The translations under genes and the position numbers were made by a program. A stretch of 64,000 nt of DNA, taken from the NCBI RefSeq assembly GCF_028641065.1, contig NC_073382.1, forward strand, positions 58,342,001 through 58,406,000. The letters are read 5' to 3'. The notes under the pieces are model-generated. The model was given only the letters and a program-made list of their open reading frames with translations. It had not been told where the DNA came from and searched no databases. Positions 6,772-60,312 of this stretch are shown here, one piece after another. How positions within the stretch are numbered: the first letter of the stretch is position 1; the number at the start of each line of letters is the position of its first letter. This DNA is from Leucoraja erinacea. Its lineage: Eukaryota.

Positions 6772-7259
6772 TTAAGCGGAGGTTGGGCGATCATTTCGCC
6801 GAACACCTCCGCTCAGTCCGCAATAACCTACCTGAACTCCCGGTGGCTCAGCACTTCAACTCCCCCTCCCATTCCCAATCCGACCTCTGTCCCGGGTCTC
6901 CTCCATTGCCAGAGTGAGCAACACCGGAAATTGGAGGAACAGCACCTCATATTCCGCCTGGGTTGCTTGCGTCCGGATGGCATGAACGTTGAATTCTCCC
7001 AATTTTGCTAGCCCTTGCTGTCTCCTCCCTTTCCTTAACCCTCAAGCTGCCTCCTCCCATCCCCCCGCCCTCGGGCTCCTCCTCCTCCCTTTTTCCTTCC
7101 TTCTCCCCCCCCCCCCCACCCCCCATCAGTCTGAAGAAGGGTTTTGGCCCGAAACGTCGCCAATTTCCTTCGCTCCATAGATGCTGCTGCACTCGCTGAG
7201 TTTCTCCAGCATTTTTGTGTACCTTTGATCTTTCAGCATCTGCAGTTCCTTCTTGAACA
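6772..7259 (+). mobile_element. Penelope-like element 3' fragment (GIY-YIG C-terminus, poly-C, hammerhead core, terminal tail)
   Basis: Encodes KRRLGDHFAEHL...HFNSPSH...RKLEEQHLIFRLG..PDGMNVEF and is nearly identical to 41590-42040. Confidence 0.88.
7131..7158 (+). ncRNA. Putative minimal hammerhead ribozyme core (Penelope-associated)
   Basis: CUGAAGA-A-GGGU[UUUG]GCCC-GAAAC-GUC has all core nucleotides, helix II and a palindromic ACGU helix III. Helix I is only about 2 bp. Confidence 0.6.
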
Positions 7260-8823
7260 ACAGATTATCTTGATGAGTATACTATTTCACACATGTAGAT
7301 GGCTCAAGATCCACTCACAGTATGTGAATTGATGGACTGACATACTAGTTCTTTCCACATCAAAATTAATGTTCTCTAACATTTTGTCTCAAGATAATGT
7401 GCTAGGATAGATTCACACTAAAAGAGAATTTTCACCTTTATGAGCAGGCTTAGGTTTCAAATCCTGAATATACAATTCCTCCAAATTCTACAGCTATAAG
7501 TAAGACAAAAGAGAGAATGTTGATGTTTGATATATTCTATAAACGAGATACTATCTATATTCCCCATTGATTTTCCTTTACCCCGATCCATTTTGTAAAT
7601 AAAGTAACAAAAGAATAGCCAAAGTGCTGCATCATTACAGTTGAATTAAATAATAGCGTGGAGTAAATAGCTTCCCCAACTATCTTCAAGCTTGCTCATG
7701 GTGTTGCAAAATGAAAAACTTCCAAAAAAGGGTTATCCTGAGATGAAAGGCAATGATTGATAAAGTAAAACAAAGCAAAGATCAATACTTGCAGGTAACA
7801 TTTATATTAAAGCACGATGTCAAGGAACTAGATTTAAAAGTGCCTTCATCAAAGCAAAGCCTTTTTACTTGTTATTATTTATATTATGATTTATGATTGT
7901 GAAGCATCATTTTTCAGCAATTTTTCACTGCAATGAATATTTGCAGCAAAATTGTGGGCAAGGGTGATGGATTTTTTCCAGTTTTGTCATTGATCACATT
8001 TCTTTGAGATTGAAACGCAAGGTTTCTCTTTGTTGTGAAATATGTCTTCAGAGAAAGGTGGGGCACAGAGAGGAACACCACAGCTGTGTTGGGTTATTAA
8101 GTTGCACCCAACCTTTTTTTTTAAGTCACCTTATCCATTCCGGGTTTGGTCCAAAGCATGTAAATGTTAACTTTGTCAGACAACACATTTATGGTATGTA
8201 CACAAATGTTGTAACAGCACATTTGTAAACCAGATGGGATGAAATTAAACTTTAAATGTAGGCTTAGTTTGAGTGTCGGATAGGATTGATTGGATAAAAT
8301 GGATACGGGAATTTGTTCAATTTGATGGAAGGCTCATGTTTTGACAACATTTGCCAAGTTGCTCATGGTACAATAGGGTTAATGATTCTGCTTAAGTATA
8401 ATCTGCTGAAGTACCTAACAATTTTGTAATTATTGTAAGGGAAATAATGATTGGAGAGGTGCCTCAGATGCTATTTATTGCAATATGACTTGCTTTGAAA
8501 TTGTTGATTGGAGCTATCTTGAAGCAGATATATCACTCAAAAACAAAACTTTCACCCCAAATGTGCACTGTGTGCAACGCATGATAGGTTAAATTACATG
8601 AAGAAAATTAAATTGATCGATTATAAGGAATCCGAATTGATCACGTAAAAAAACATACTATAATTTAGTGATTTAGGAATCAAATTAATGTGATTTAGAA
8701 AGAAATTAATATAAAAATAAAATCAATAGGATTAACCTATTTAAAATATATTCAATTCACTGTTACTGTTCTACTTGTAATACATTGCAGTTTACTTGGA
8801 TAAAAAGAGTATATTAGATTTTA

Positions 8824-8931
8824 TGTTTAAGAAAGAACTGCAGATGCTGGAAAAATCAAAGGTAGACAAAAATGCTGGAGAAACTCAGCGGGTGAGGCAG
8901 CATTTATGGAGCGAAGGAAAATATGACGTTT
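8824..8931 (-). mobile_element. Penelope terminal fragment
   Basis: tgtttaagaaagaactgcagatgctgg...ctcagcgggtgaggcagc is the reverse complement of the PLE terminus. Confidence 0.8.
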
Positions 8932-9204
8932 ATGTGCTGTTTTAATGTTGTGAAATGTCAGGCATGGATGAAAAACAAAGGCAAATAGTTTTTAAAATAT
9001 TTCTAAACTGTATTCTTATATGAAATGTAGGAGTGTATTTTTTTTGCAATGTTTTCCATGTCTGCAGCGTTTAGTGAGCAAATTGCTTGTAATATATTGA
9101 AGAGATGAAATAATTCATATGGGGAATATGAATCAAATTAAGATAATATAATGAAACGCAATGATCAGAAGTAATAGCTACATACAAGAGTATGTATAGG
9201 TTGC

Positions 9205-9445
9205 AACTGAATCATCCTACCACAACTGAGAGCAGTCCTGAACTATTATCCACCTCATTGGTGACCCTCGGACTATGTTTGATCGGACTTTACTGGCTTT
9301 ATCTTACACTAAACGTTATTCCCTATCATGTATCTATACACTGTGACTGGCCCGATTGTAATCATTTATTGTCGTTCTGCTGACTGATCAGCACGCAACA
9401 AAAACTTTTTACTGTAGCTCGGTACACGTGACAATAAACTAAACA
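9205..9445 (+). mobile_element. Rex1/Babar-type 3' UTR fragment
   Basis: Homologous to the 3' UTR at ~49920-50155, which follows Rex1-type coding sequence. Ends gtgacaataaactaaac. Confidence 0.6.
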
Positions 9446-9842
9446 GAATTGGAAGTCTAGAATGAAGATCTAGAAGAGATGAAGATAGCAAATTATAATA
9501 AGTTCCAAGTAATAGAAGATTACAGTATATAAAAAGTGTCTAATTAAACATATGACAATAGGCAGGAATGCTGAGCTGAGGAACTGGTGCCGAGAGGTGA
9601 AGGTAAACTCATTCAGACCATAGAGGGAAAAGAAATGGTGAAGAAGCTTAATCTTGAATACCTCCAAACTACTTCTAGAGGGACCAATGAATAATAGCCA
9701 CCACTGTTGCCCAAGTAAAAAGTCATAACAGTTAAATCCAAAGTACTATTAAAATAGTAAAAATAAATAATCTTAAAAACTGAAAATGAACATTGAATTA
9801 CATTTTAATGTAATCGAACTTTTATGACAATGAGGAAAAACA

Positions 9843-10045
9843 TAAAAATGCTGGAGGAACCCAACTGGTCAGGCAGCATCTGCGGAGGGAATGGTCAGAC
9901 GTGTTTCGTGTCACGAGTCTGAAGAAGGTTCCTGACCTGAAACATCATCTGTCCATACCCTCCCCAGATGCTGCCTGACCTGCTGAATTCCTCTCACACT
10001 TTGTGTTTTGCTCAAGATTACAGCGTCTACAGTCTCTTGTGTACC
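9843..10045. mobile_element. Fold-back mini element made of two inverted Penelope termini joined at the hammerhead core
   Basis: The left arm (gctggaggaaccc..gtcaggcagcatctg) is the reverse complement of the right arm (cagatgctgcctgacctgctgaattcc). The core CTGAAGA-AGGT-tcctg-ACCT-GAAAC-ATC is at 9919-9946. Confidence 0.75.
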
Positions 10046-10364
10046 ATGATACTGGGCCTTGATAGCAGAGAAGCTTAAACCTTACCCTAACTGTGCACAT
10101 AATACTATCTGTACCGTTCAAATGCTATTATTTTTTCATTCATTTCTCTTCTTCTGTATGATACTTACATTTTCTGCTATTATATTTTAACAATGTGCTT
10201 ATTTTTTCGATTTAGTTTTGTAGCAATGAGCACCCAGAGAGAAGTGCATACAGGATCATACCTGGAAAACAGAGGGTTGGAGAATAAGTGCAGGGTTCTA
10301 ACAGGAAGACAAGATATAGGTCACCCTTGTCATATATTCTCATTTGCCTAATATCAAGTAACAA

Positions 10365-10606
10365 ATTTTTACACAGAGAGTGGTGAATCTCTGGAATTCT
10401 CTGCCACAGAAGGTAGTTGAGGCCAGTTCATTGGCTATATTTAAGAGGAAGTTAGATGTGGCCCTTGTGGATAAAGGGATCAGGGGGTATGGAGAGAATG
10501 CAGGTACAGGATACCGAGTTGGATGATCAGCCATGATCCTATTGAATGGCGGTGCAGGCTCGAAGGGCCGAATGGCCTACTCCTACTCCTGCACCTATTT
10601 TCTATG
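10365..10606 (+). mobile_element. CR1 LINE 3' end (young family)
   Basis: Reverse complement of the 3' end of the CR1 at 17134-18512. Ends tttctatg. Confidence 0.9.
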
Positions 10607-11457
10607 AAAATCTGAATTTGAACAGAATGTTTGACCTTCCAAGGTAATATGAGATTGTACAACATCAATGAAATTACAAGTAGATGTGATAGCTGCAAGG
10701 TTTGATGATATTTTGGCCTTTGCTATCCCTTTTCACAAAAATAAAAGATGGAGAAAGGTCAGAAAGTGAAGAATATACCATGATCCTTTCATGAGCTTAG
10801 GAGGAGTGCAGCTATTTATTGGTATTTTCAAACAAAATTACTTTCTTAATGAAGTTATACTTGAATTATTGAAAATTCAGGTTAACTACATCCAACTTTT
10901 TTCAAACCTCTTTTACCAAAAAGAAACATTTATAGATGTTTTGCAAAGTATTCAATGCAAATTTTACTGAAATTACTCAATTACTTAAATAAATACAAAA
11001 AAAACCCACAAATACTTGGATAAAAAATACTTCAATATGTTTAAAATTACGAGTAACACTGCCTGCTTCCAATCAAGCAAAGCAGTGCATCAATTTAAAT
11101 TTTTGAACAGAGTAGATATAGACAAACGGGAACCAAACAAAAAGAACTTTAAAGATATTTTATACACATCCGGTAAAGTCAGTACAAATGTTGGTCACAT
11201 TAATGCAATGCTTGCTTGGAGGTTACAAGTAAACTGATCTCATTCACCCATCTGCCTTCCAGATGAGCTCTCTTTTCAACTGACATCCCTAAAATAAATA
11301 GTTGCTTTCCCCATTCTAAACTGAAGAATAGACAATAGATTTGAATGAGGACTCTGAGGTGATTGAAACGTGGATAAAATTATTAAATCAAAAACCTAGC
11401 TTGACAACTGTAAATGTAAATGCTGCCAGGAACCCAAAAGTAATCAAACTTAAAATA

Positions 11458-11659
11458 AATACAAAAAAACTGGAGAAAATCAGCGGGACAGGCAGCATCT
11501 CTGGAGAGAAGGAATGGGTGACATTATGGGTCGAGGCTCTTCTTCAGACCCAAAACGTCACCCATTCCTTCTCTCCAGAGATGCTGCCTGTCCTGCTGAG
11601 TTACTCCAGCTTTTTGTGTCTATCTTCGGTTTAATCCAGCATCTGCAGTTCCTTCTTAC
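11458..11659. mobile_element. Fold-back mini element made of inverted Penelope termini fused within the hammerhead core
   Basis: gggacaggcagcatctctggagagaaggaatgggtgac pairs with gtcacccattccttctctccagagatgctgcctgtcc. The centre is tcttcttcagacccaaaacgtc. Confidence 0.85.
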
Positions 11660-11792
11660 CCAGTAATTAAACTTGCTGGACATCGATTTCTGCTGTGGCA
11701 TATAACCGCTTGAGAATCTGAAACATCTGAAAATTTTCCATTGTTTTAAGAATATGTCTGGATTAATTGAAAACTACTTTTAAATTTATTTT

Positions 11793-12747: not shown

Positions 12748-13767
12748 TGAATGAATGAATGAATGAATCTCTTTATTGTCATTGCACATGGTACAACGAA
12801 ATTTAAAAGTCAATCCCATGGTGTGATTCACAAGAGCAATTTTAAATATATAAGAAAAGGTAAAATTATATACATATTAAAAACAAATACAGATAAATAA
12901 CAATAGCAGCTGAGGTAGAACCATTCAGTTGAATGTGAGTGTTATTTCTTATTTTGCATTGTTAAGTTCACGTATGGCTATGGGGTAAAGCTGTCTCTGA
13001 GTCTGTTTGTGCGAGTTTTGAAAGACCTGTACCGTCTGCCAGAGGGCAGTAGGTGGAACAGTTTGTGTCCAGGGTGGGAAGGGTCCTTCAGGATGTTGGC
13101 TGCCCTGCCAAGGCAGCGAGAGCTGAAGATGTCCTTCAGGGACGGCAGTGGGCAGCCAGTGATTTTTTGTGCGGTGTTGATGACCCGTTGAAGGGCTCTC
13201 CTGTCCGCTGCAGAGCAGCTGGCATACCATGTGGTTATACAGTACGCCAGCACACTCTCGATGGAGCAGCGGTAGGGCACCAGCAGCTTCTCCTCCAGGT
13301 TGTTTTTCCTGAGGATCCTCAGAAAGTAGAGTCGCTGCTGGGCCTTCTTGACTGCTGTGGTGGTGTTTGTAGTCCAGGAGAGATCCTCCGTAATTTGTGT
13401 GCCCAGGAGTCTGAAGTCTGATACCCTTTCCACACAGTCCCCATTGATGAATAGGGGTTTGGGGGCTGCACTGTTCTTACGGAAGTCTATGATAATTTCC
13501 TTTGTTTTTGTGGTGTTTAGGATGAGGTTGTTGTCTGAACACCACGCTGCCAGTCTTTGGACTTCCTCCCTGTAGGCTGTCTCATTTCCTCCTGAGATAC
13601 GTCCAACCACAGTCGTGTCGTCCGCAAACTTGACGATGGTGTTGGTGGAGTGGGCGGGGGCACAATCGTGGGTGTAGAGGGCGTAGAGGAGGGGGCTCAA
13701 CACACAGCCCTGTGGGGAGCTGGTGCTGAGTGTGATGGGGGTGGAGAGGTGATGGCCCAGTCTGACG
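12748..13767 (-). mobile_element. Rex1/Babar LINE, 5'-truncated, RT C-terminal half largely intact
   Basis: ORF 12978-13817 encodes PQGCVLSPLLYALYTHDC, KFADDT, KKAQQRLYFLR, ILKDPSHPGH and LPSGRRYRS. The tail is caatgacaataaa plus (ATTC)n. Confidence 0.92.
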
Positions 13768-15355
13768 GTGGTTACACCAATCTTAAAGAAACCTGGTCTT
13801 GATCCCTCCTCTCTCATTAACTACTGCCCAATCTCAAACCTCCCCTTTCTTTCAAAAACCCTGGAGTGTATAGTTGCGTCGCAACTTCATTCCCACCTCC
13901 CTGCGTATAACCAACTTGAACCCATCCAATCTGGCTTTCGCCTCCTCCATAGCACAGAAACTGCTCTCCTCAAAGTCCTCAACGACCTCCTCACCTCTGC
14001 TGACACTTGTTCCCTCAACATCCTCATCCTCCTCGACCTGAGCGTAGCCTTCGATACAGTGAACCATAACATCCTGCTCACCAGACTCGAGGACCTCGGC
14101 ATTGAAGGCTCTGCACTCAGCTGGCTCCGTTCCTACCTTTCCAACAGATCCCACTTCATCTCTCTCCACAACCACACCTCTGCTACAGCCACAGTCACTC
14201 AAGGCGTTCCCCAAGGCTCTGAACTCGGCCCCCTCCTCTTCATCATCTACATCCTCCCCCTTGGTCAGATACTCCGCCACTTCAACCTGAACTTCCACTG
14301 TTACGCCGATGACACCCAGATCTACCTCGGCACCAAATCCCCCCACAACCCCCCTCTCCCATATCAACTCCTGTTTGGCAGCTATAAAAACCTGGATGCA
14401 ACATAACTTCCTCAAACTCAACAGCGATAAGACAGAATTCCTCCTCATAAGCTCCAAAGCCACACTCAGCAAAATCAGTAACCCCACTCTCATCATCGAC
14501 GGCACCACTGTCTCCCCATCTCCCCAGGCCCGCAACCTTGGCATGATCTTTGACTCCACCCTCTCCCTTGAGCCTCACATCCGCCATGTCATTAAAACCT
14601 CCCTTTCATCTCCGCAACATCGCCAAACTCAGACCATCTCTCACACGTCCCGCTGCTGAAAGACTCATCCATGCCTTCATCTCCTCCCGACTGGACTATT
14701 GCAACTCACGTCTCCTTGGCATCAGCTCCACCTACATCAACCGACTCCAACTGGTCCAGAACGCAGCCGCCCGACTCATCACCCACACCAAATCCTGGCA
14801 TCACATCACTACAGTCCTCAAACAACTTCACTGGCTTCCCATCTCCCACCGGATCACCTACAAAATCCTGATCCTCACCTACAAAGCCCTCCACCATCTG
14901 GCCCCCCCATATCTCACTGACCTCCTCTCCCCCTACCAACCCTCATGGTCCCTCAGATCCACATCAGCCGGTCTCCTCTCCATCCACATGTCCAACCTCC
15001 GCAGTTTTGGGGACAGAGCCTTCTCCAGGGCAGTTCCCAGGCTCTGGAACTCCCTCTCCCAACTGATCCGCAATTCCGTGTCCCTCACCATCTTCCAGTC
15101 CCGCCTCAAGACCCATCTCTTCACCTCTGCCTATCCTTAGCCCCACGTCTCCCTCCCTTTTCATCTGTGCATTAATTGCCTCATATTGTGTTTTGAATTG
15201 TATTCTGTCTTTACTTTGTGTACTAGTCATGTCTCTACTATTTATTTCATTCCCCTTACATGTTTTTCCTCTACATGCTAAATTTTTGTAAGGTGTCCTT
15301 GAGACTCTTGAAAGGCGCCCATAAATAAAATTTATTATTATTATTATTATTATTA
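13768..15355 (+). mobile_element. L2 LINE, 5'-truncated, with frameshifted ORF2
   Basis: Encodes VTPILKKPGLDP, PISNLPFLSK, QSGFR, LDLSVAFDTV, GVPQGS, YADDTQIY, SRLDYCN, QLHWLP and GDRAFS. Ends ataaataaaa(tta)n. Confidence 0.93.
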
Positions 15356-17133: not shown

Positions 17134-18512
17134 CATAGAAACATAGAAATTAGGTGCAGGAGTAGGCCATTCGGCCCTTCGAGCCTGCACCGCCATTCAA
17201 TATGATCATGGCTGATCATCCAATTCAGTATCCCGTACCTGCCTTCTCTCCATACCCTCTGATCCCCTTGGCCACAAGGGCCACATCTAACTCCCTCTTA
17301 AATATAGCCAATGAACTGGCCTCAACTACCCTCTGTGGCAGAGAGTTCCAGGGATTCACCACTCTCTGTGTGAAAAAAGTTCTCCTCATCTCGGTTCTAA
17401 AGGATTTTCCCCTTATCCTTAAGCTGTGACCCCTTGTCCTGGACTTCCCCAACATCGGGAACAATCTTCCTGCATCTAGCCTGTCCAACCCCTTAAGAAT
17501 TTTGTAAGTTTCTATAAGATCCCCTCTCAATCTCCTAAATTCTAGAGAGTATAAACCAAGTCTATCCAGTCTTTCTTCATAAGACAGTCCTGACATCCCA
17601 GGAATCAGTCTGGTGAACCTTCTCTGCACTCCCTCTATGGCAATAATGTCCTTCCTCAGATTTGGAGACCAAAACTGCACGCAATACTCCAGGTGTGGTC
17701 TCACCAAGACCCTGTACAACTGCAGTAGAACCTCCCTGCTCCTATACTCAAATCCTCTTGCTATGAAAGCCAACATACCATTTGCTTTCTTTACTGCCTG
17801 CTGCACCTGCATGCCTACCTTCAATGACTGGTGTACCATGACACCCAGGTCTCGCTGTATCTCCCCCTTTCCCAATCGGCCACCATTTAGATAATAATCT
17901 GCTTTCCCGTTTTTGCCACCAAAATGGATAACCTCACATTTATCCACATTATACTGCATCTGCCAAACATTTGCCCATTCACCCAGCCTATCCAAGTCAC
18001 CTTGCAGTCTCCTAGCATCCTCCTCACACCTAACACTGCCCCCCAGCTTAGTGTCATCCGCAAACTTGGAGATATTGCCTTCAATTCCCTCATCCAGATC
18101 ATTAATATATATTGTAAATAGCTGGGGTCCCAGTACTGAGCCTTGCGGTACCCCACTAGTCACTGCCTGCCATTGTGAAAAGGACCCGTTTACTCCTACT
18201 CTTTGCTTCCTGTTTGCCAGCCAGTTCTCTATCCACATTAATACTGAACCCCCAATGCCATGTGCTTTAAGTTTGTATACTAATCTCTTATGTGGGACCT
18301 TGTCGAAAGCCTTCTGGAAGTCCAGATACACCACATCCACTGGTTCTCCCCTATCCACGCTACTAGTTACATCCTCGAAAAATTCTATAAGATTCGTCAG
18401 ACATGATTTACCTTTCGTAAATCCATGCTGACTTTGTCCAATGATTTCACCACTTTCCAAATGTGCTGCTATCCCATCTTTAATAACTGACTCTAGCAGT
18501 TTCCCCACTACC
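17134..18512 (-). mobile_element. Young CR1 LINE, 5'-truncated, uninterrupted RT reading frame of ~430 aa
   Basis: ORF 17225-18535 encodes QHGF, YLDFQKAFDKV, GVPQGSVLGP, KFADD, RPHLEY and FFTQRVV. Tail is (TTTCTATG)n. Confidence 0.95.
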
Positions 18513-18919
18513 GCATCTAATCCGAAACACAACAACGTTTTACAGATTAAGCTATTTCAATTTAAAATGTGAGGATATATTTCTGATAGTAATATACAAG
18601 TACATGCATTACTATAGAAAATAAACATTGGTAGAATAATGTGAGATTGTACACCACAACAAAGATTACAACAGAATTTATAGCATATTTTTAAGAACAG
18701 ATTTCAATTATTTTTCCTGTCATAGCATTAATAGTTATTGTATTAGAATTGATAGCACAGAAACAGGACATTTGTATTGACTGATCTTTACCATTATACT
18801 TGATCCATTTCAGCCTCTTTGCGTTTAATTCAGAAACACAAGAAATTGCAGATGCTAGAATCTTAAGCAAAGCGAAGTGCTGGAAGAACTCAGCGGGTGA
18901 GGCAGGTCAGATACAGGGA

Positions 18920-25296: not shown

Positions 25297-26990
25297 TATA
25301 ACCATATAACAATTACAGCACGGAAACGGGCCATCTCGACCCTTCTAGTCCGTGCCGACCATGTATTCTCCCCTAGTCCCATATACCTGCGTTCAGACCA
25401 TAACCCTCCATTCCTTTCCCGTCCATATAACTATCCAATTTATTTTTAAATAATAAAAACTAACCTGCCTCCACCACCTTCACTGGAAGCTCATTCCACA
25501 CAGCCACCACTCTCTGAGTAAAGAAGTTCCCCCTCATGTTACCCCTAAACTTTTGTCCCTTAATTCTCAAGTCATGTCCCCTTGTTTGAATCTTCCCTAC
25601 TCTCAGTGGGAAAAGATTATCCACGTCAACTCTGTCTATCCCTCTCATCATTTTAAAAACCTCTATCAAGTCCCCCCTTAACCTTCTGCGCTCCAAAGAA
25701 TAAAGCCCTAACTTGTTCAACCTTTCTCTGTAACTTAGTTGCTGTAACCCAGGCAACATTCTAGTAAATCTCCCCTGTACTGTCTCTATTTTGTTGACAT
25801 CCTTCCTATAATTAGGCGACCAAAATTGTACACCATACTCCAGAATTGGCCTCACCAATGCCTTGTACAATTTTAACATTGCATCCCAACTTCTATACTC
25901 AATGCTCTGATTTATAAAGGCCAGCACACCACACCACCACCACCCTTTACCACCCTATCTACATGAGATTCCAATTTACCACACCATCATCCAGATCATT
26001 GATGTACATGACAAAAGTGGACCCAACACAGATCCCTGTGGCACCCCACTAGTCACTGGCCTCCAACCTGACAAACAACCAACCATTACTCTCTGGCATC
26101 TCCCATTCAGCCACTGTTGAATCCATCTTGCTACTCCACCATTAATACCCAACAATTGAACCTTCTTAACCAACCTTCCGTGAGGAACCTTGTCAAAGGC
26201 CTTACTCAAATCCATATATACAACATCCACTGCTTTACCCTCATCAATTTCCCGAGTAACCTCTTCAGAAAATTCAAGAAGATTAGTCAAACATGACCTT
26301 CCAGGCACAAATCCATGTTGACTGTTCCTAATCAGACCCTGTTTATCCAGATGCTTATATATATTATCTCTAAGTATCCTTTCCATTAATTTGCTCACCA
26401 CTGACGTCAAACTAACAGGTCTATAATTGCTAGGTTTACTCTTAGAACCCTTTTTAAACAATGGAACAACATGCGCAGTACGCCAATCCTCTGGCACCAT
26501 TCCCGTTTCTAATGACATTTGAAATATTTCTGTCATAGCCCCTGCTATTTCTACACTAACTTCCCTCAATGTCAATGTCCTAGGGAATATCCTGTCCGGA
26601 CCTGGAGACTTATCCACTTTTATATTTCTCAAAAGTGTCAGTACTTCCTCTTCTTTGATCCTCATAGTTTCCATAGCTACTCTACTTGTTTCCCTTACCT
26701 CACATAATTCAATATCCTTCTCCTTGGTGAATACCGAAGAAAAGAAATTTGTTCAATATCTCCCCCATCTCTTTTGGCTCTGCAGATAGCTGTCCACTCT
26801 GACTCTCTAATGGACCAACTTTATCCCTCGTTATCCTTTTGCTATTAATATAGCTCTAGAAACCCTTTGGATTTACTTTCACCTTACTTGCCAAAGCAAC
26901 CTCATATCTTCTTTTAGCTTTTCTAATTTCTTTCTTAAGATTCTTTTTACATTCTTTATACTCCTCAAGCACCTCATTTACTTATGCTGC
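25297..26990 (-). mobile_element. CR1 LINE (second family), internally deleted
   Basis: ORFs 25976-26674 (KSPGPD, NYRPVSLTS, QHGF, DLSKAFDKV, GVPQGS) and 25460-25927. The FADD region is deleted near 25930-25990. Tail reads (ataaccat)n on the plus strand. Confidence 0.92.
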
Positions 26991-35902: not shown

Positions 35903-35959
35903 CTCCGTAACATCCATAACTTTAATGGCTGCCAGCTGGCCTGTTTTGACATGGCGACC
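35903..35959 (-). pseudogene. Duplicate copy of the same kinase exon with a broken acceptor (pseudo-exon or assembly duplicate)
   Basis: The 57 nt and the GTGAGT donor are identical, but upstream reads ttctttctttG|GGTCGC, so the A of the AG is missing. Confidence 0.8.
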
Positions 35960-37617: not shown

Positions 37618-37674
37618 CTCCGTAACATCCATAACTTTAATGGCTGCCAGCTGGCCTGTTTTGACATGGCGACC
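37618..37674 (-). CDS. MAP4K4: Internal 57-nt coding exon of a GCK-IV STE20 kinase (MAP4K4 most likely; MINK1/TNIK not excluded), encoding GRHVKTGQLAAIKVMDVTE (kinase subdomain II, AAIK lysine)
   Basis: Minus strand reads ttgtttctttctttAG|GGTCGCCATGTCAAAACAGGCCAGCTGGCAGCCATTAAAGTTATGGATGTTACGGAG|GTGAGT: polypyrimidine tract, AG acceptor, consensus donor, phase 0-0. The peptide matches the MAP4K4/MINK1 sequence as I recall it. I found no neighbouring exons within >26 kb on either side, which fits the long-intron paralogues. Confidence 0.88.
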
Positions 37675-40205: not shown

Positions 40206-40781
40206 CTAACTTGAGAAATTCTTGAGAAATAATCACAAACACACAACATATTCAATCCATAAGGATTCTACAAACGGGAGAAAGATCTGCAGGTAAATTC
40301 TAAAAGAAAAGAGACATTTGTACTGTCAGAATTCAAACACTCTTCAGTTTTTGTGGGAACACTCAGATGAAAGAGAATTATTTTTAAAGAATAATTATTA
40401 TATTTCCTCACTTCACCAAGCAACCAAATTCCTTAAATCTTTTGCATTAAAAAAAGATCAATCTAGACAGACAGGCAGGGGCCTTGCTATTTGGGACCAT
40501 ACAATCATGATCTTAAAATTTTAAAAAGATTCCCTACATCGTGGAAGATACTTTGCATTTATGAAATATGTCACTTCAAACAATTCTTTAAGTAGCTCAC
40601 ATGAAACTCCATCCTATTCATCCAAATAGCAAGATAACTATCTAAACCCGTAGGCAGTCATTCCAGTTTAAAACAAGATATCCTTAATCTTGCACACCAA
40701 TTAAATACTGCTTCTTTGAAAACAAAGAGAATTACATTCTATCACATAAAATAAGCATCTGGTGAAGGTGTCCCAAAATAC

Positions 40782-42040
40782 ATTGCCGACTGCTTTGGGG
40801 CCACCTCCTGCACCTACACACAACTGACTGACTTCATCCACTTCACCACCAACTTCCATCCGGCACTCCAATACACCTGGACCATTTCCGACACTTCCCT
40901 ACCATTCCTTGACCTCACCATCTCCATCGCAGGGAACAGACGTCTGACCGACATACACTACAAACCAACTGACTCACATGGCTATCTGGATTACACATCT
41001 TCCCACCCTGCCCCCTGTAAAGACTCCATCCCCTACTCCCAATTCCTCCGCCTACGCCGCATCTGTTCCCAGGATGAGACATTCCATACCAGGGCATCGG
41101 AAATGTCCTCGTTCTTCAGGGAACGGGGATTTCCCTCCGCCACCATAGATGAGGCTCGCACCAGGGTCTCATCCATACCCCGCAACACTGCTCTCTCTCC
41201 CCATCCCCGCACTCGCAACAAGGGCAGTCTTTCTCGCCTTTCACCCCACCAGCCGGCAAATACAACACATAATCCTCCTCCATTTCCGCCACCTCCAACG
41301 TGACCCCACCACTCGCCACATCTTCCCATCTCCCCCTATGTCTGCCTTCCGCAAAGACCGCTCCCTCCGCAACACCCTTGTCAATTCTTCCCTTCCCTCC
41401 CACCGCCTCCCCGGGCACCTTCCGTTGCAACCGCAAGAAATGCAACACCTGTCCCTTCACCTCCCCCCTCGACTCCATTCAAGGTCCCAAGCAGTCGTTC
41501 CAGATGCGACAAAGGTTCACCTGTATCTCCTCCAACCTCATCTGCTGCATCCGCTGCTCTAGATGTCAGCTGATTTACATCGGGGAGACTAAGCGGAGGT
41601 TGGGCGATCATTTCGCCGAACACCTCCACTCAGTCCGCAATAACCTACCTGAACTCCCGGTGGCTCAGCACTTCAACTCCCCCTCCCATTCTCAATCCAA
41701 CCTCTCTGTCCTGGGTCTCCTCCATTGCCAGAGTGAGCAACACCGGAAATTGGAGGAACAGCACCGCATATTCCGCCTGGGCAGCTTGCGTCCTGATGGC
41801 ATGAACGTTGAATTCTCCCAATTTTGCTAGCCCTTGCTGTCTCCTCCCCTTCCTTAACCCTCGAGCTGTCTCCTCCCATCCCCCCGCCCTCGGGCTCCTC
41901 CTCCTCCCTTTTTTCTTCCTTCTCCCCCCCCACACCCCCATCAGTCTGAAGAAGGGTTTTGGCCCGAAACGTCGCCTATTTCCTTCGCTCCATATATGCT
42001 GCTTCACCCGCTGAGTTTCTCCAGCAATTTTGTGTACCTA
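40782..42040 (+). mobile_element. Penelope-like retroelement, 5'-truncated (RT thumb, GIY-YIG, hammerhead), 9-bp TSD
   Basis: Encodes FHPALQYT..LPFLDL..YKPTDSHGYLDYTSSHP..SIPYSQFLRLRRICS, CNRKKCNTC and CSRCQLIYIGETKRRL. TSD CCAAAATAC at 40773-40781 and 42041-42049. Confidence 0.93.
41946..41973 (+). ncRNA. Putative minimal hammerhead ribozyme core
   Basis: CUGAAGA-A-GGGU[UUUG]GCCC-GAAAC-GUC, about 115 nt after the GIY-YIG stop. Confidence 0.6.
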
Positions 42041-43719: not shown

Positions 43720-45357
43720 AGACACAAGGAACTACATATGCTGATTTACAAAACAAAAGAAAGTGTTGGAGTACCTCAGCCGGTCTTGCAGCATCTCTGG
43801 AAATCACGGATAGGCAACATTTTGGGTCAGTACCATTTTTCAGACCAATTGTAGGAGGGGTGAGAAAGCTGGAAGGGAGGTGGGGGCAGGACACAGCGTG
43901 ACAATTGATAACTATATTTTGGGCGAGGGTGGTATTCAATGGCAGATGGGTGGACAAAAGACAAAGATGGGAAGAAGGCAACAGGGTGAGAGATAGAAAA
44001 AGTGAGAAATGTGAAGTTGGAGGAAGGGATATAGGTCGAAGGGGAAAGGGGTGCTGTGGGCTAGTTACCTAAAAGGTTGGAGGCTTAGGTAACTAATTTT
44101 ACCTCTAATGTTCATGCTGTTGGGTTGTAGACCACCCAAACAGAATAAAATGCGCGGTTCCTCCAGTTTACGTGTGGCCTCAGTCTGCCTGTGTAGGAGG
44201 CCCAGGTCAGTTGGGTCGGTGTGGGAACAAGAGGAGGAGTTAAAATGGTTAGCAACCAGGAGATCCAGTAGGCCTTGGCGGACTGAGCACAAGTGTTCAT
44301 CTAAAAAGTTGTCTAGTCTATGCTTGGTTTCACCGATGTAAAGGATCCCACATAACAAGATGAATCGAATTTGGCTTAATAACAAGAGGAATCGAATATA
44401 GGAGCAAAGAGTCCCTCCTGCAGTTGTACAGAGCTCTAGTGAGACCACACCTGGAGTATTGTGTGCAGTTTTGGTCTCCTAATTTGAGGAAGGACATTCT
44501 TGCTATTGAGGGAGAGCAGCGTAGGTTTACAATGTTAATTCCCGGGATGGCGGGACTGTCATATGCTGACAGAATACGGCAGCTGGGCTTGTACACTCTA
44601 GAGTTTAGAAGGATGAGAGGGGATCTCATTGAAACATATAAGATTGTTAAGGGTGTGGACACGAGGCAGGAAACATGTTCCCGATGTTGGGGGAGTCCAG
44701 AACCAGGGGCCACAGTTTAAGAATGAGTAAGCCATTTAGAACGGAGACGAGGAAACACTTTTTCTCACAGAGAGTTGTGAGTCTGTGGAATTCTCTGCCT
44801 CAGAGGGCGGTGGAGGCAGGTTCTCTGGATGCTTTCAAGAGAGAGCTAGATAGGGCTCTTAAAAATAGTGGAGTCAGGGAATATGGGGAGAAGACAGGAA
44901 CGGGGTACTGATTGGGGATGATCAGCCATGATCAGATTGAATGGCGGTGCTGGCTCGAAGGGCCGAATGGCCTATCCCTGCACCTATTGTCTATTGCCTA
45001 TTGCCTATTATCGAGAGCATCGAATGAGGAAAAATGAGGCTAGAGGAGGTGCATATGTCTCACCTGGAAGGGCTGCTGGGGTCCCTGGATGAATGTGAGG
45101 AAGGTGGTCTAGGGACAGATGTTACATCTCCTACAGTTAAAGGCAAAATAACCTAAGGAGGGGGTTGTTACAGTGGGAAAGGATGAGTGAACCAAAGAGT
45201 TGCGTAGGGAATGAGCTCTGCAGAAGGCAGAAAGGGCTGGGCATGTGAAAATGTGACTGGTGGTGGGATCACAATGAAGGAACTGTCAGAAAATTGTGTG
45301 TTGGAAGCAGAGGCTGGGATGAAAGGTAAAGACTAGGGGAACTCTATCCTTGTTCTG

Positions 45358-45944: not shown

Positions 45945-46650
45945 ACAGGTACCTTCCCCTGCAACCGCAGAAAATGCAACACCTGCCACTATACCTCCTC
46001 CATTGACTCTATGCAGGGACCCCGACAGTCCTTTCAGGTTAGGCAGAGGTTCACTTGTACCTCCTCCAACCTCATCTACTGTAACCGTTGTTCAAGATGT
46101 GGACTCTTATTCATCGGCGAGACCAAACGCAGACTGGGCGATCGTTTCGCGGAACACCTTCACTCAGCCCGCGTTAACCAACCTGATCTCCCGGTTGTTG
46201 GACACTTTAATTCTCCTTCCCATTCCTACACTGACCTTTCTGTCCTCGGTCTCCTCCATTGTCAGAGTGAGGCTAAACGCAAATTGGAGGATCAGCATCT
46301 CATATTTCGCTTGGGCAGCTTACAGCCCAATGGTATGAATATTGATTTCTCTCACTTCAGGTAGTCCCGACATTCCCTCTCTCTCTCTATCCCTCCCCCA
46401 CCAGTCGCACTAGCTTCTCATTTTCACCCTACAAACAGCTTACCTTTAAACAGCTCAATGGCCAGTTTCCTTTATCATGGCCACTTTTTGCATATCTTTC
46501 ATTCATTGTTCTTTATCTCTCCACATCACCGTCTATATCTCTTGTTTCACTTATCCCATAACCAGTCTGAAGAAGGGTCTCGGCCCAAAACATCACCCAT
46601 TCCTTCTCTCCAGAGATGCCGCTGAGTTACTCCAGCTTTTTGTGTCTGTC
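45945..46650 (+). mobile_element. Penelope-like GIY-YIG fragment plus terminus
   Basis: ORF 46011-46364 encodes CSRCGLLFIGETKRRLGDRF. A decayed hammerhead core is at 46567-46594. Confidence 0.88.
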
Positions 46651-50155: not shown

Positions 50156-50406
50156 CTCCATTCCCCACTGGACATCACAATAGCAGAGGTGAACATCCAA
50201 AGAATCAATAAGCTCACAGAAGTAGCCCAAGCCAAATCCATCAGTAACAGAATCCTGCACAATGATTCATGTATAATACGTTAAAATCAAACACCTGTGG
50301 GCCTGCTTTTTTACTTATGGAAAACACTTTCTACATTGAAACATGTGGCCAAATGTGGCAATAACACAATTAAATATGCATCACAACCTGTGCTCCTTGT
50401 GTCCTT

Positions 50407-50540
50407 TGTTTAAGAAGGAACTGCAGATGCTGGAAAATCGAAGGTCTGAAGAAGGGTTTCGATCTGAAACGTTGCCTATTTCTTTTGCTCCATAGATGCT
50501 GCTGCACCCGCTGAGTTTCTCCAGCATATTTGTGTACCTC
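50407..50540. mobile_element. Mini Penelope fold-back element: inverted terminus joined directly to the hammerhead core
   Basis: The antisense terminus (tttaagaaggaactgcagatgctggaaaatcgaagg) switches to the sense strand right at CTGAAGA (50446). Confidence 0.8.
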
Positions 50541-52209
50541 CTTGTGTCCTTCGGCACTAGGCACAATACATATAGTCTGCAAAATTGGGCAAATCCAAGT
50601 TTCATTGTCTGCTAAGATCAAAAACTTTCCTCCACTGATTTCACCCTCATTTCAATCACCTACTGCATAAAACTTATGCCTAACATTGAAAACATTTCTG
50701 TATCAATGTTACATTCTACATCTAACACAATCAAGCGTTATCTAACTGAACATTGTGCAGGAAATTAATCTTGTCTCATGCATATTTATGCTATGGCATA
50801 AGTTTCTGAAAAAATACATAACCACACTCCTTAGACACTTTAACAAATCATCCTTTAGATACACCAGGGCCTCTACATAAACAAAACAAACGCAAACACA
50901 TCAAAAGGCAATGGTTCACTGCACAAGATGGACCCTCAAAATTAAAAAAAGTATGATCCTTTCATGTTTGGAAACAAATTATTTTTGGAATTGTATTCTA
51001 CCTTGTAGAGCATCAACGTCTTACTAGAATACTCTAAAAAACCATCAGACAATAGTCCCAAACCATTAGAAAATTTTATATTCGAAGAGCATAAAATATA
51101 TTGCTTTCTCTTGCTGAATATATTCACAGTATATTGTTGATATGAATATCAAATCATCCAAAGATTTAAGCTGGTATTTTCATAATTTATCCTATATCTC
51201 AAACACCAAAAACAACTACTGAACTACTGTACCTAAATTACATTAGCGACTAACAAACTGAGTTCAAAACATAAATCAAGTACATATATTTGCATATTTC
51301 AAAACGAGAAACTAGTTTTCAAGGGAGTAATTAAGCCAATTTACATCATTATTCAAAAACGGCATTCCATTAAAGATAATTAATGTAACATAAACAGATT
51401 GGAATGAGAATCCGAGTGCACAATGTACAGTTTAATCAATACCAGGGCACAGATAAGAGTTTTGATGCATGTCTGCTTGAGTGCTGGTGAAAATGAGATT
51501 TCAGCAAGATTAAATATTGTTAGCTCATCTACATTCTAAGCAAACCACTCCATTTGCAAAATAAAGCTGAAAAATAAAAGCTCTGAGTTTTTCACAGGTG
51601 CATCTGTTTCTGGTCTTTTTAAACAATGTCGTGTGTATTCAGTTGTGGCATTTCTTCTAAGCACAGTAGTCGAGTGTTCTATGGAAGGATTTAAATAGTA
51701 CAGACGCATACATTCAATGTCAGAATACAGTGCATCTTTGTCAAGAAGGATGCCACTGCAAACTTTCTTATTTGCTATTTCAGCAAGTGTGATCCGACAT
51801 TACTGGCCAAAAAGGGACAGAATTTTGCTTTTAATCGTGATTATGATCAAAACAAAGCAAAATCAACAAAATGAAATGCCATTTAATGAAATGCTCTCGG
51901 AGCAAAAATGTTCCAGAGCATTTCACAGATATGAAGCCAAATAAAAGATTGATGTCGAGACACACACAAAAGCCCACGGGGGTCAAAGGGCAAAAGGCTT
52001 GGTCGAAAATGATACTCTTAAAGGAGCTGCTTAAAGAAAGACAGAGGCAAGAAGAGGTTGCAAGGTTTGTGTGAAGGGTGGTATTTGGGAGCCTTGGCAA
52101 TTGATGGCACAGTTTCCAACAGTGAGAACTAATTTAAGAGAAGCTCTGGAGGCCAGAAGAGAGCGGGAGTAATGCAAATATATCAGATGGCTATAATGCT
52201 GGGACTCAC

Positions 52210-53240
52210 CTCCCATTTTATTCACATTGGGCAGCTTACAACCCAAAGGTATGAACGCTGATTTCACCAATTTCAAGTAACTCCTGCATTCCTTGCACCC
52301 CCTCCCCCCTCCACCTCCCCTCCCTTGCCCTCACTGTTCTCATCCTTGTATCCCTGTCGTTAGCACATCTTCCGGAGCCAACAACGGGCCATTATGGACT
52401 CCATCCTTCCTCAGGCCGTGAATAAGCAGAACTTGGTAAAATGAGAAAACATGGCTGAAATTTGTATTCCTATGAACCCCATCGCTAACATGTTAAAGAG
52501 AGAACTGCAGATGCTGGAAAAATCAAAGATAGACAAAAATGCTGGAGAAACTCAGCGGGTGAGGCAGCATCAATGGAGCGAAGGAATAGGTGACGTTTCG
52601 GGTCGAGACCCTTCTTCAGGCTGATGTTGGGGGGGGGGGGGGGGGGGCAGGAAAATAAAGGAAGGCGGAGACAATAGGCTGTGAGAAAGCTGGGAAGGGG
52701 AGGGAAGGAAGGAGAAAGCAATGACCACCTGAAATTGGAGAAGTCAATGTTCATACCACTGGGGTGCTAACATCCTAAGCTTACAACATTTTTCATTTAC
52801 AGGAAGATTTTAATCTTAGATTCAACCCATTATTTTTCTGAAAGTATATGCAATTCTTTTTTACCACTTTATTCTGCCTGGCTCCTGCCAGAAGAGGTAG
52901 AGACAAAATGCTGGAGTTACACGGCGGGACAGGCAGCATTTCGGAAGAGAAGGATTGGGTGATGTTTTGGGTCGAGACCCTTGTTCAGACTGTCAGGGGA
53001 AAGGGAGTTGAGAGATATGGATGGGTAAAGTGTGAAAATGACAGGTCAAAACAGATGATGATAAGGAAATGTAGAATGGTTCATTGTTAGCTGAATAGAA
53101 GGAGGCATACCATCAGTAAAATGAATCAGAAGGACAATGAAACTATTCTGAGAACTAGGGTGAGGGAGGAATGGAGAGAGAGGGAAAGTAAGGGTTACTG
53201 GAATTTAGAGAAATCAATATTCATACCACTGGGTTGGAAG
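52210..53240. mobile_element. Cluster of three Penelope 3' fragments (52210-52420 +, 52490-52780 -, 52885-53240 -)
   Basis: Each has the GMNxDF(S/T)NF end of GIY-YIG. The two minus-strand copies also keep the terminal motif. Confidence 0.8.
52592..52619 (-). ncRNA. Putative minimal hammerhead ribozyme core
   Basis: Minus strand CUGAAGA-A-GGGU[CUCG]ACCC-GAAAC-GUC, with a fully Watson-Crick helix II. Confidence 0.62.
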
Positions 53241-55110: not shown

Positions 55111-55177
55111 CACACAAGCTCCCACAAACAGTGACATGATTAAGACCATTTAATTTTATTTAAGACATAACTGATCC

Positions 55178-55413: not shown

Positions 55414-55717
55414 TGACTAAAGTGAAGATTAAATGCCAGGAATATGCTCCCACTCTATTTCACTGCAGTGCCAAGTTTGAATGTATCGTACCAGTACTGT
55501 GTAGTGTTCATTTGTTTACTGAAAAAAGAAAGTACTTGAAATAGATATGGAGTAGTTCAAATGATGCCGGGTTTGTTGTATGAGCAGAGTGTAGATTGGG
55601 ACTGCATCCTTAGAGATTAGAAGGTTAGGAGATCTTATCAAAACTGACCAAATTCCCAAAAGGCTTGAGAAGCTAAATGCAAGGAGATGTTTCCCCTCAC
55701 AGAGTCAAAGAAAAAGG

Positions 55718-56425: not shown

Positions 56426-56834
56426 GTTTGAAAGTAACAGATAGGCCCCAGAAGACTGAGACAAGGAGAAATGTGTTCATTTAGAGTGTAGTGAACCTTT
56501 GTGATTTCTTTCCGCAGACAGCTGTGGAAGCTCAGACAGTGTATTCCTTTCAAATAGAGAATGATCGATTTCTATACAAGGGAATCAAAGGATATGGGAA
56601 TGGTGGAGCAGACTTGGCAGGAGTGTCTATTCCCGCTGCTACAACTTATGCTCTTAGACAAAATGGAGCTGTTCTGAAAATACAGCACTACCACTACTCC
56701 ACTGCAATATCAACTCAGATTTCTGTGTACGACACTCTGGACCCAGAACATTCTCACCACAAAATTAGGGTGCTCGCAGGTGACAGATGTAAAAGTAGTT
56801 TGAGGGGAAATCCAGGGTACCACATTTCCCAAGT

Positions 56835-57078
56835 TCATAAGTTACAGGAGCAGAAGTAGGCCATTCAGCCCATCAAGTGTACTCCACCATTCAATCATGG
56901 CTGATGTATCTTTCCCTCTGAACCCTATTCTCCTGCCTACACCCCGTAACCCTTGATACCTTTATTAATCAAGAATCTATCAATCTACACCTTAAAAAAA
57001 CCATTGATTTGACCTCCAGAGCCATATGTGGCAATGAATTCTACAGATTCACCAACCTCTGACTAAAGAAATTCCTCA
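56835..57078 (-). mobile_element. CR1 3' fragment
   Basis: CR1 3' UTR ggagcagaagtaggccattcagccc... Confidence 0.8.
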
Positions 57079-57382
57079 TCTAAAGGAGATCTCGACCTGA
57101 AATGTCACCCATTCCTTTGCTCCAGAGATGCTGCCTGTCCCAGAGTTACTCCAGTTGGAAACTGAGTATCTTAGCTCTAAATGCGAACCTCGGGGGATGG
57201 TTCTATTGAAGTCTTTAATTGCCTCAGAGCAAATTTTAAATGCTACTTTTAAATAAACTGAGAGTTGCACAACAGAGGATCTTATAGTTAGCCCAAGCAA
57301 AATCTAATTCCCACCCCTCCCCCCAGAAAATAGATGCAGCAGCTCTGAAAGATTGGAAGGAAATTCTAAATCACTTGCTTTA

Positions 57383-57687
57383 AGCCTCTGTCCCACTTTC
57401 CAGAGTTACTCACAAATTCTCCCAAGTTTTCGCCTTGATTCAAACGCAGAGAATTACGGTAATAGCCAGCGGTACTCAGGGCTATTTTTTTTACTCATGG
57501 ACATTTTTCAACATGCCGAGAAAAAGTCCCGACTTACCTGATGACTCGAGTACCTACGGCTGGCATTACGAGCCGCTACAAAATATCTACGGACTCCTAG
57601 GGACTCGCTTTGGACATTCTCCGAGTTTGAATCAAGGGGAAAATTCGGGAGAATTCGTGTGTAACTCGGGAGAGTGGGACTGGGGCT
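57383..57687. mobile_element. PIF/Harbinger-like MITE with TTA TSD
   Basis: TTA|AGCCTCTGTCCCACTTTCCAGAGTTAC ... GTAACTCGGGAGAGTGGGACTGGGGCT|TTA. Confidence 0.88.
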
Positions 57688-58483
57688 TTACAAAGTAGGA
57701 CATTATTGTAACATTTTTGTAACATTACTAAAAGTTTATTTCATTATTAGAAAGCAAAATTGTAACCACCAACCTCAAAACAGACAAGTGAAAGTAAACA
57801 GTCGCTGGATTTACCCAAAACCAGAGATTTACTTTTTTAAAAAATCTAATTTGTTTATTTACTTTCTTTTCAGGAGTCAAACAAAAATTAGTTAATTGCC
57901 GGGTACTCATCTAATCACCATTTCTTTGATGGGAGCACTGAAGGTACAGAACCATGGCCATTTTATTTCATCTTGTCCCTTCCTGAAAAAAACAATAATA
58001 AGGTTGGCTTCCACAGCAACTACCAGAAATGGGAACTATAGTTTCAACATCACTTTTTTCACAAAGTTGATTGCACTTAAGAGAAGCCCCAATCTGTTAT
58101 CTTTGAACATCCCAAAATAGCACCTAGCTTTGGACAAGAACTCCTGGGCGTTCACCCATCATTAATGCTGGGAATAGGCACTAGTTCCATTTTTGGTAAG
58201 GGGATCTTGATTCACACTTCCTGATCAGTGTGAACTAATGTAGAATCTAAGGGGGCGGCATGGTAGCACAGTGGCAGAGTTGTCACACCCAGGGCATACA
58301 GCAGGCACGAGTCCAACCGCAGCCAAATAATTAAAGTCTTACATGCTGTGAACAATTCCAAGTGAGATAAGTTCTAAGACTATAAAACATTAATGCAACT
58401 CCAGTGTGTTATACTACGCTGCAGACAGGTTTGTTTCCTTCCATAACAGTTTTGAAATCTTCTTTCCAGTACTCATATTAGAG

Positions 58484-58882
58484 TCATTCATCATCATCAT
58501 CGTTAAAAATCATTAGCGACACCGTGGTGCTGGTTTCCAACGGGAACGGTGACGGATGCACATCTTTGTCCTGCAGTTCCTGCGGACTTCCGCCGTTGGA
58601 AGTATAGGATTTTGGTGTGTGTGCTTTATCATCATTCCTTACAATGCTATGTACGACAGTGATAGCAACTTCTACTGAAGTGTAGATGGCCATTGGCTCG
58701 CTAGAAGCTCATCCGCCCTTTGACAGGTCATGTTTTTGGCTCTGCTGGGGGTCCACAGCCCCCTCCTGACCTGGCAAACCATGTGGGAGAAACGGTTTAG
58801 GCGCCGACTATCCGACCATTAAGCAAGTAGCACGGGATTACATGGTACCCGTGGCAGGAGGAACTCCCCCCGACCTGGCCTG
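58484..58882 (-). mobile_element. Possible non-autonomous RTE-type element
   Basis: CpG-rich body with a (GAT)n tail on the minus strand. atggccatctacacttcagtag resembles RTE 5' UTR motifs. No coding remnant recognised. Confidence 0.4.
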
Positions 58883-59100
58883 AGAGTCAAACAGCATGGA
58901 AATTGGTCTTTTGACCCAACTTGCCTATGCCAACCAAGATGCCCCATCTATATTAGTCCCACCAGCCAATGTTTGCCGCATATCCCTCTAAATCTTGCCT
59001 ATCCTTGTATGTGTCTAAACATCTTTTAAATGTTAGGTTCACAAAAAAGCTGGAGAAACTCAGCGGGTGCAGCAGCATCTATGGAGCGAAGGAAAAAGAC

Positions 59101-59128
59101 AACGTTTCGGGCCAAAACCCTTCTTCAG
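59101..59128 (-). ncRNA. Putative minimal hammerhead ribozyme core
   Basis: Minus strand CUGAAGA-A-GGGU[UUUG]GCCC-GAAAC-GUU. Confidence 0.55.
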
Positions 59129-60284
59129 ACTGATCGGGGGTGGGGGGGCGGGGAGAAGAAAGGAAAAAGGAGGAGGAGCCCGAAGGCTGGGGGATGGGAG
59201 GAGACAGCAGGAGGGCTGAGGAAGGGGAGGAGACAGCAAGGGCTAACAAAATTGGGAGAATTCAATGTTCATACCCCCAGGATGCAGACTCCCCAAGCAG
59301 AATATGACGTGCTGTTCCTCCAATTTCTGGTGTTGCTCGTTCTGGCCATGGAGGAGACCCAGGACAGAGAGGTCGGATATGGAGTGGGAGGGGGAGTTGA
59401 AGTGCTGAGCCACCGGGAGGTCAGCTTGGTTATTGCGGAGGTGTTCGGCGAAACGATCGGCCAACCTCCGCTTGGTCTCACCAATATAGATCTGCTGACA
59501 TCTAGTGCAGCGGATGCAATAGATGAGGTTGGAGGAGATGCAGGTAAACCTCTGTCGCACCTGGAACGACTGCTTGGGTCCTTGAATGGAGTCGAGGGGG
59601 GAGGTAAAGGGACAAGTGTTGCATCTCTTGCGGTTGCAATGGAAAGTGCCCGGGGAGGGGGTGGTCGGGAAGGAAGGGAAGAATTGACAAGGGAGTTATG
59701 GAGGTAGTGGTCTTTGCAGAAGGCAGATATGGGGGGAGATGGGAAGATGTGGCGAGTGGTGGAGTCACGTTGGAGGTGGCGAAACTGACAGAGGATTACT
59801 TGTTGTATGTGACGGCTGGTGGGGTGAAAGGTGAGGACTAGGGGGACTCTGCCCTTGTTGCGAGTGGGGGGGAATGGGGAGAGAGAGCAGTGTTGCGGGG
59901 TATGGAAGAGACCCTGGTGAGAGCCTCATCTATGGTGGAGGAGGGGAACCCCCGTTCCCTGAAGAATTAGGACATTTCAGATGCCCTGGTGTGGAATGCC
60001 TCATGCATTTCAACTCCCCCTCCCACTCCGTATCTGACCTCTCTGTCCCGGGTCTCCTCCATGGCCAGAGCGAGCAATACCGGAAATTGGAGGAACAGCA
60101 CCTCATATTCCGCTTGGGGAGTCTGCATCCTGGAGGCATGAACATTGAATTCTCACAATTTTGTTAGTCCTTGCTGTCTTCTCCCCTTCCTCAGCCCTCC
60201 TGCTGTCTCCTCCCATCCCCCAGCTTTTGGGCTCCTCCTCCTTTTTCCTTTCTTCTCCCCCCCCCCCCCCCACCCCCGATCAGT

Positions 60285-60312
60285 CTGAAGAAGGGTTTCG
60301 GCCCGAAACGTT
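60285..60312 (+). ncRNA. Putative minimal hammerhead ribozyme core
   Basis: CUGAAGA-A-GGGU[UUCG]GCCC-GAAAC-GUU. Confidence 0.58.

Follow-up and report, generated by a model that had tools for sequence, protein, structure and literature searches.

In Penelope-like retroelements, a class of minimal type I hammerhead ribozymes with an extra base after A9 and a loopless palindromic helix III has been in print since 2014 (Cervera and de la Pena, PMC4209133). The monomer is reported there as inactive and the dimer as having low activity, and the role of Penelope hammerheads has been called unclear (PMC8557442). In the Poseidon element of the anole Anolis carolinensis, cleavage takes place only with the element protein and is dispensable for insertion, the uncleaved RNA being the main template (Frangieh et al., 2024, PMC11167929). 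In addition, a 2026 preprint on animal non-LTR (long terminal repeat) retrozymes, i.e. tandem arrays with a type I hammerhead related to the pseudo-long terminal repeat (pLTR), includes one chondrichthyan and reports cleavage in one of nine Xenopus dimer elements (10.64898/2026.07.22.740005). The present analysis concerns a stretch of 64,000 nucleotides from Leucoraja erinacea (assembly GCF_028641065.1, contig NC_073382.1, positions 58,342,001 to 58,406,000; hereafter the window, numbered from its first letter), in which such motifs recur within fragments of a Neptune-type Penelope-like retrotransposon. The explanation put forward, with a probability of about three in four, is that a minimal type I hammerhead belongs to the 5' leader of this element and probably needs dimer formation or the element protein in order to cleave, most copies likely being inert by-products of insertion.

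Identity of the element and of the motif

The copies in the window are 5'-truncated fragments of a single retroelement family, of which a long genomic copy encodes an open reading frame (ORF) of 838 aa (P0001) with DKG, YIDD, a CX4CxxC linker before the endonuclease (residues 705-713), YIGET and the CCHH residues. A CX2-5CxxC linker marks the Neptune and Nematis Penelope-like elements (PMC8557442), and the resemblance to the Neptune clade (Craig et al., 2021, PMC8557442) extends to DKG, CCHH, the C-terminal GIY-YIG endonuclease and to partial tandems, inverted 5' copies and an optional tail of 30-40 bp, the latter three all being present in this family. By its sequence features the motif-bearing element is a Neptune-type Penelope-like retrotransposon, Neptune rather than Nematis being an assignment based on motifs and host group, not on a tree. 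The closest named homologs of P0001 are shark proteins (63-70% identity), followed by those of marine invertebrates (about 50%).

A preliminary description of the window, made from the letters alone, had recognised the motif as a minimal hammerhead of type I, of the kind found in Penelope-like elements and with a palindrome as helix III, and core, helix II, palindrome, helix I and location in the pLTR all fit. Like the hammerheads of PMC4209133, it is of type I, has no loop 3, a palindromic 15.2-16.2, an unpaired base between 9 and 10.1 and a G10.1-C11.1 pair, and occurs mostly as single dispersed motifs left by truncated elements, while differing by a helix I of 2 bp here as against 2-5 bp there. 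Every feature listed in the preliminary description is found in that paper; the motif itself is known and, within the literature searched, only the copy number and the accumulation of 5' ends at the motif edge go beyond print. A shark or skate term is absent from the two supplementary files of PMC4209133 searched. None of the papers listed by literature searches describes this family or reports the motif from a chondrichthyan, although a cartilaginous-fish entry could be present in file 1 of PMC4209133 or in supplements on bioRxiv, both outside their scope; nor does any listed paper deal with the accumulation of 5' ends, supplements and some papers again lying outside that scope.

All six motifs that had been called intact match the pattern exactly at the positions given, the core CUGANGA...GAAA...UH being unaltered in each, and the seven sites called decayed were all found (Table 1), together with two more, at 11520-11547(-) and about 31996(+). 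The copy at 9919 is decayed as far as the palindrome of helix III and one helix II pair are concerned, although it keeps all catalytic bases. The Rfam hammerhead families gave no match in the window at their gathering score, presumably, in our reading, because these models expect longer helices than this hammerhead has.

Copy number across the genome

A strict 28-nt hammerhead pattern is matched exactly 69,962 times in the 2.19-Gb genome and its reversed control not at all, so that the recurrence of the motif is not due to chance and the very high copy number anticipated earlier is borne out; relaxing the pattern to a different base at N7 brings 4,075 further matches. By comparison, and with differing search methods, about 4,000 copies are given for the coelacanth and about 9,000 for Xenopus tropicalis (PMC4209133). 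A module profile built from the downstream flank only, with 0 matches in reversed sequence, detected 354 modules when run on 100 stretches of 10 kb each, chosen evenly, i.e. about 7.8e5 genome-wide (6.5-9.0e5), the total of sampled genomic sequence being 1.264 Mb. Most copies are nonetheless altered: among 349 sampled copies with complete flank, the catalytic bases are kept in 72 and the core, helix II and palindrome together in 43, which, along with the lack of strand bias in the host gene and of a pile-up at the cut site, goes against the mostly working ribozymes that had been implied. On the more tentative reading given below, in which the ribozyme forms the very 5' end of the RNA, the genome would hold about 0.8 million hammerhead-headed modules, about 70,000 of them intact, the largest load of a ribozyme motif found reported.

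Tandem arrays such as define the non-LTR retrozymes were not found, the window copies being dispersed single or inverted units and a same-strand intact neighbour within 5 kb occurring in 7 of 43 intact copies, a figure limited by the 10-kb length of the stretches; no array search was made genome-wide.

Position of the motif and ends of the copies

The motif had been regarded as a 3' feature, at a fixed position after the GIY-YIG stop and some 65-100 nt before the element end. A better reading is that it forms the unit's 5' leader. Of 30 loci with the 5' part of the ORF, eight carry an in-register motif module some 610-620 nt farther upstream, and one more locus carries a portion of it. Five of the eight start within a few bases of C3, and the other three (L205, L211 and L214) are partial tandems made of an endonuclease end, the motif and an ORF start, the motif being located between stop and ATG, i.e. 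in the pLTR. Besides, in alignment with full-length homologs the ATG at L210:1008 corresponds to their residue 1, and it lies 163 nt 3' of C3, the hammerhead being likewise 163 nt upstream of the ORF start in near-full-length units. The modules in register and the alignment of the ATG together assign the motif to the 5' leader, and the tandem pLTR accounts for its occurrence after the GIY-YIG stop. The spacing itself holds in part, with 114-119 nt from stop to C3 in four of the six intact copies, but no stop was detected there for the copy at 52619(-), and the one at 50446 has no ORF. As for the element end, copies have two 3' ends 35 nt apart, at +66 and about +101 past the cleavage site. In the anole element, two 3' ends a tail apart are tied to two internal starts of reverse transcription (PMC11167929). 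Poseidon also shares with the present element the hammerhead at the pLTR-ORF junction and the lack of any trace of cleaved templates; the differences are the Neptune clade here, an ORF start 136 nt after the cut site rather than inside the ribozyme, and the accumulation of 5' ends at the motif edge, not reported in the available parts of that paper.

Two side observations can be mentioned. A short upstream frame at L210:893-1020, opening within the leader, extends across the main ATG, where a splice-donor-like site is present too; no joint of an intron beginning at the ORF start was seen among the RNA-read matches listed. Short tandem repeats of about 66 nt, at L083:2535-2666, L162:5592-5724 and L186:3683, extend from the last 8 core bases as far as the first 3' end; they lack the core's 5' half.

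Among the sampled copies keeping the 5' half of the core (n=165), 68 have unrelated sequence upstream, 46 inverted sequence and 51 run on into the pyrimidine tract, these classes being assigned by composition and hence imperfect. In the class with unrelated upstream sequence, the match to the element falls from 0.72 at -3 to 0.40 at -4 and to background by -7, as against 0.75 and 0.69 in continuing copies. When 101 young-family copies were compared with a natural reference, breaks at -7..0 were found in 26/56 (about 0.06 per nt) versus a rate of only about 0.001-0.002 per nt between -31 and -1000; 28/84 break inside the core and 2/86 at the cut site, denominators excluding four copies broken beyond +70. 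Genome-wide, exact counts drop from 24,345 to 19,278 and 11,562 on extending the pattern by six bases, first C3 to -2 and afterwards -3 to -5, more than a 5% divergence per site would give, subfamily variants contributing. Many copies are in fact units of 95-135 nt, short units predominating, and target-site duplications surround 17 of 68 short copies versus 0-5% of shuffled pairs, which indicates that at least those were inserted as 95-135-nt units. No pile-up of 5' ends exists at the cleavage site, with 24/304 ends in the four nearest bins and 2/86 in young-family copies; the idea of a cleaved template, with 5' ends at H17, was rejected on these counts. A splice acceptor 5' of C3, which the pyrimidine tract and an AG resemble, was rejected as well, the sequence upstream of short copies being heterogeneous and the best-supported loose ends lying at -5, -3 and -2, not -1.

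In RNA reads from runs with the same species label, the hammerhead module is abundant on both strands, depth climbs tens-fold at the 5' edge of the motif and loose read ends pile up at -3/-2, these ends reflecting genomic junctions, not molecule ends. Over the 5' part of the ORF at L210:1080-1400, reads are of low depth, show a bias towards one strand in three out of four runs, and carry variants of another subfamily, a weak hint at transcription of some full-length units.

Secondary structure and covariation

Within this genome, 0/11 core positions, 1/8 helix II positions and 17/62 flank positions differ between subfamily majorities (Fisher p=0.04, core vs flank). The pairing of helix II had been thought to be preserved by covariation across subfamilies, yet no two-sided change was found between these majorities, the single difference being one-sided (U-A to U.G), and a G-C kept as G.U arises by default through C-to-T decay. 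The pairs GGGU/AUCU at 50446 and AGGU/ACCU at 9919, which had been cited in support, are changes of single copies, the latter requiring a shifted register. Nor is the 4-bp helix I of 50446 a property of the element, as it was made by an inverted tail fused upstream at an inversion junction; a 12-bp direct repeat (50395-50406, 50540-50551), as read from the sequence, flanks that whole insertion, inverted tail included. In this genome helix I is of 2 bp, its first two pairs being formed in 131/165 and 134/165 copies and the third in 28/165, and helix II of 4 bp.

Two-sided changes appear only with distant Neptune relatives. Of 80 metagenome loci, 57 were scanned and 49 had enough downstream sequence, the motif being 3' of the ORF in 20/49 and antisense in none, with the extra base after A9 in 18/20. 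An alignment was made of the six window copies and 15 of 25 relative motifs, near-duplicates and four motifs of other build being omitted and rows selected for at least three helix II pairs. In these 21 rows G10.1-C11.1 is G-C in 20, A15.1-U16.1 is found in all 21 and 15.2-16.2 is paired in 20, consistent with a loopless palindromic helix III. Helix I pairs 1 and 2 show 12 and 8 two-sided changes with one unpaired row each, and two helix II pairs show 3 and 6. The covariation score is 0.485 versus at most 0.11 in slid controls and was reached by 0/500 shuffles, helix II having entered the row filter and helix I not, and kinship inflating the shuffle test. At the family level, the hammerhead fold is real. 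In two distant relatives (L338:3872 and L349:3814), a hammerhead-like core that lacks the extra base and differs in helix III lies 330-430 nt 3' of the ORF.

Proposed mechanism and alternative explanations

A mechanism can be proposed that joins what was observed, namely the identity of the element, the position of its motif, the two 3' ends separated by 35 nt, the accumulation of 5' ends immediately in front of C3 and the target-site duplications of some short units. The RNA would begin about 3 nt before C3; the element protein would initiate reverse transcription within the element, at +66 or +101, internal starts having been shown for the anole element, and reverse transcription running off the 5' end of the RNA would give the hammerhead-headed units of 95-135 nt. 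Longer copies would arise by read-through or from tandem RNA, hence a motif after the GIY-YIG stop. The copied RNA would be uncleaved, since integrated copies keep the whole motif, and cleavage probably requires a second copy to form helix III, or a protein, as in other members. Tens of thousands of insertion junctions in this genome, with a whole uncleaved motif and often a start just before it, fit the in vitro model of 2024. More tentatively, and at somewhat less than even odds, the ribozyme may form the very 5' end of the RNA, starts at 66 or 101 nt past the cut mass-producing mini-insertions, so that protein-triggered cleavage would remove a 31-nt capped leader and not process multimers. 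The bases just before C3 resemble an initiator consensus. An internal promoter is described in Drosophila Penelope (PMC2377424).

Several observations weigh against the proposed explanation. The initiator-like bases are not retained in distant relatives, and no site where many RNA molecules start or end was seen in 8 runs, all from fragmented libraries. Some apparent 5' breaks may be due to subfamily divergence. The Pfam matches of P0001 (RVT_1, E 5e-6; GIY-YIG, E 9e-4) both fall just below the curated cut-offs. Within the genome the core is barely more constant than the flank, the p value above being borderline. Helix I has 2 bp versus 3-4 bp in most relatives, and for several young copies the predicted minimum is a fold other than the hammerhead, so that the motif of this lineage may be weak or dead. 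In folding predictions for the window copies, the probability of helix II is 0.4-0.8 in three and below 0.05 in the three where the core pairs with flanking bases.

The accumulation of 5' ends could also reflect the same element with a reverse transcriptase dropping off or switching template at a folded or protein-bound motif, rather than an RNA end. This is the main rival, albeit an unlikely one; breaks are raised inside the core too (28/84), 5' inversions near the motif occur in 46 of 165 copies and the helix II palindrome favours fold-back, but reverse transcriptase stops caused by a structure are expected at its 3' foot, whereas the step is sharpest from -3 to -4, on the opposite, 5' edge, and five near-full-length units begin at this same edge. 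Slightly less probable again is a motif that has become vestigial and non-cleaving in this lineage, retained as a promoter or protein-binding signal. The 2-bp helix I, the competing pairing of the core with a downstream pyrimidine run, the missing cleavage-site signature among insertion ends and the absence of strand bias in the host gene would all agree with it; against it stand the 11/11 core positions constant across subfamilies, with both helix I pairs still paired (U-A to U.G), the covariation among relatives and the anole motif, which likewise seems silent until protein is added (PMC11167929).

The 95-135-nt unit might instead be a non-autonomous element that is transcribed independently and has master copies of its own. 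This would account for the predominance of short units, some with target-site duplications, but appears improbable since the unit matches the leader of the autonomous element and short and long copies occur in one subfamily. Least likely is the strong form of the initial proposal, with tens of thousands of active ribozymes cutting host pre-mRNAs such as that of the kinase gene described below. Intact sense copies do lie within an intron of this MAP4K4-like gene and the module is plentiful in RNA reads on both strands; however, intact copies in the gene number 8 sense and 5 antisense, 7/43 sampled intact copies of the genome have a same-strand intact neighbour within 5 kb, as far as the 10-kb stretches show, monomers were inactive in PMC4209133 and eight of the nine Xenopus dimer elements showed no cleavage (10.64898/2026.07.22.740005).

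Host gene and features of the window

Minus-strand exons, one of them identical to human MAP4K4 over 44 aa, flank and enter the window, and every hammerhead copy in it is intronic in this MAP4K4-like gene; the minus-strand copies at 52592 and 59101 are sense to it, as had been expected for a kinase gene. A search for the kinase by regular expression and Pfam on 150 minus-strand frames found nothing, as the exon consists of 19 codons. Across the gene span, 42 modules are sense and 45 antisense, so that, with small numbers, no sign of selection against sense copies is apparent. The high copy number makes this genome a good system for the host cost of intronic ribozyme motifs, the single gene tested giving no sign of cost. 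The exon is duplicated inside a tandem duplication of about 1.7 kb, at 35903-35959(-) and 37618-37674(-), the former copy having lost its acceptor AG and likely being a dead pseudo-exon.

Table 1. Hammerhead cores, element fragments and host exon in the window
Feature	Position	Strand	Remarks
Intact minimal hammerhead core (C3-H17)	7131..7158	+	Within 5'-truncated Neptune fragment 6769-7264, including tail
Longest Neptune fragment of the window	40779..42039	+	Frameshifted end of reverse transcriptase, then linker zinc finger, GIY-YIG, pyrimidine tract and hammerhead 41946-41973; without tail
Intact hammerhead core	41946..41973	+	
Short unit of 96 nt	50444..50539	+	Starts 2 nt 5' of C3; core 50446-50473; without ORF
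Inverted tail joined to 5' side of 50446 unit	50407..50445	-	Origin of the apparent 4-bp helix I
Intact core	52592..52619	-	Sense to host gene; C x A mismatch in the first helix I pair; lies in fragment of about 52491-52780
Neptune fragment with intact core 59101-59128	59035..60004	-	Sense to host gene; one arm of inverted pair
Neptune fragment with intact core 60285-60312 and tail	59997..60413	+	Second arm of inverted pair
Decayed core	3162..3188	+	
Decayed core	3834..3861	-	C3 and U16.1 altered
Core with catalytic bases retained	9919..9946	+	Helix III no longer palindromic, one pair of helix II lost
Decayed core within inverted pair	11520..11547	-	Overlooked in the preliminary description
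Decayed core, older subfamily	43816..43843	-	
Decayed core, G12 to A	46567..46594	+	3' of GIY-YIG fragment 45948-46357
Decayed core	52961..52988	-	
Decayed core	61643..61670	+	
Coding exon of MAP4K4-like host gene	37618..37674	-	Splice-bounded scan

Beyond these features, positions 3150-4300 are occupied by decayed hammerhead modules and runs of G/C in a nested, inverted arrangement. This cluster may spread as a composite unit, a near-identical one being present in L149. Fragments of other LINE (long interspersed nuclear element) reverse transcriptases, unrelated to the hammerhead element, are found by RVT_1 matches at 12981-14403, 17228-18556 and 25979-26752.

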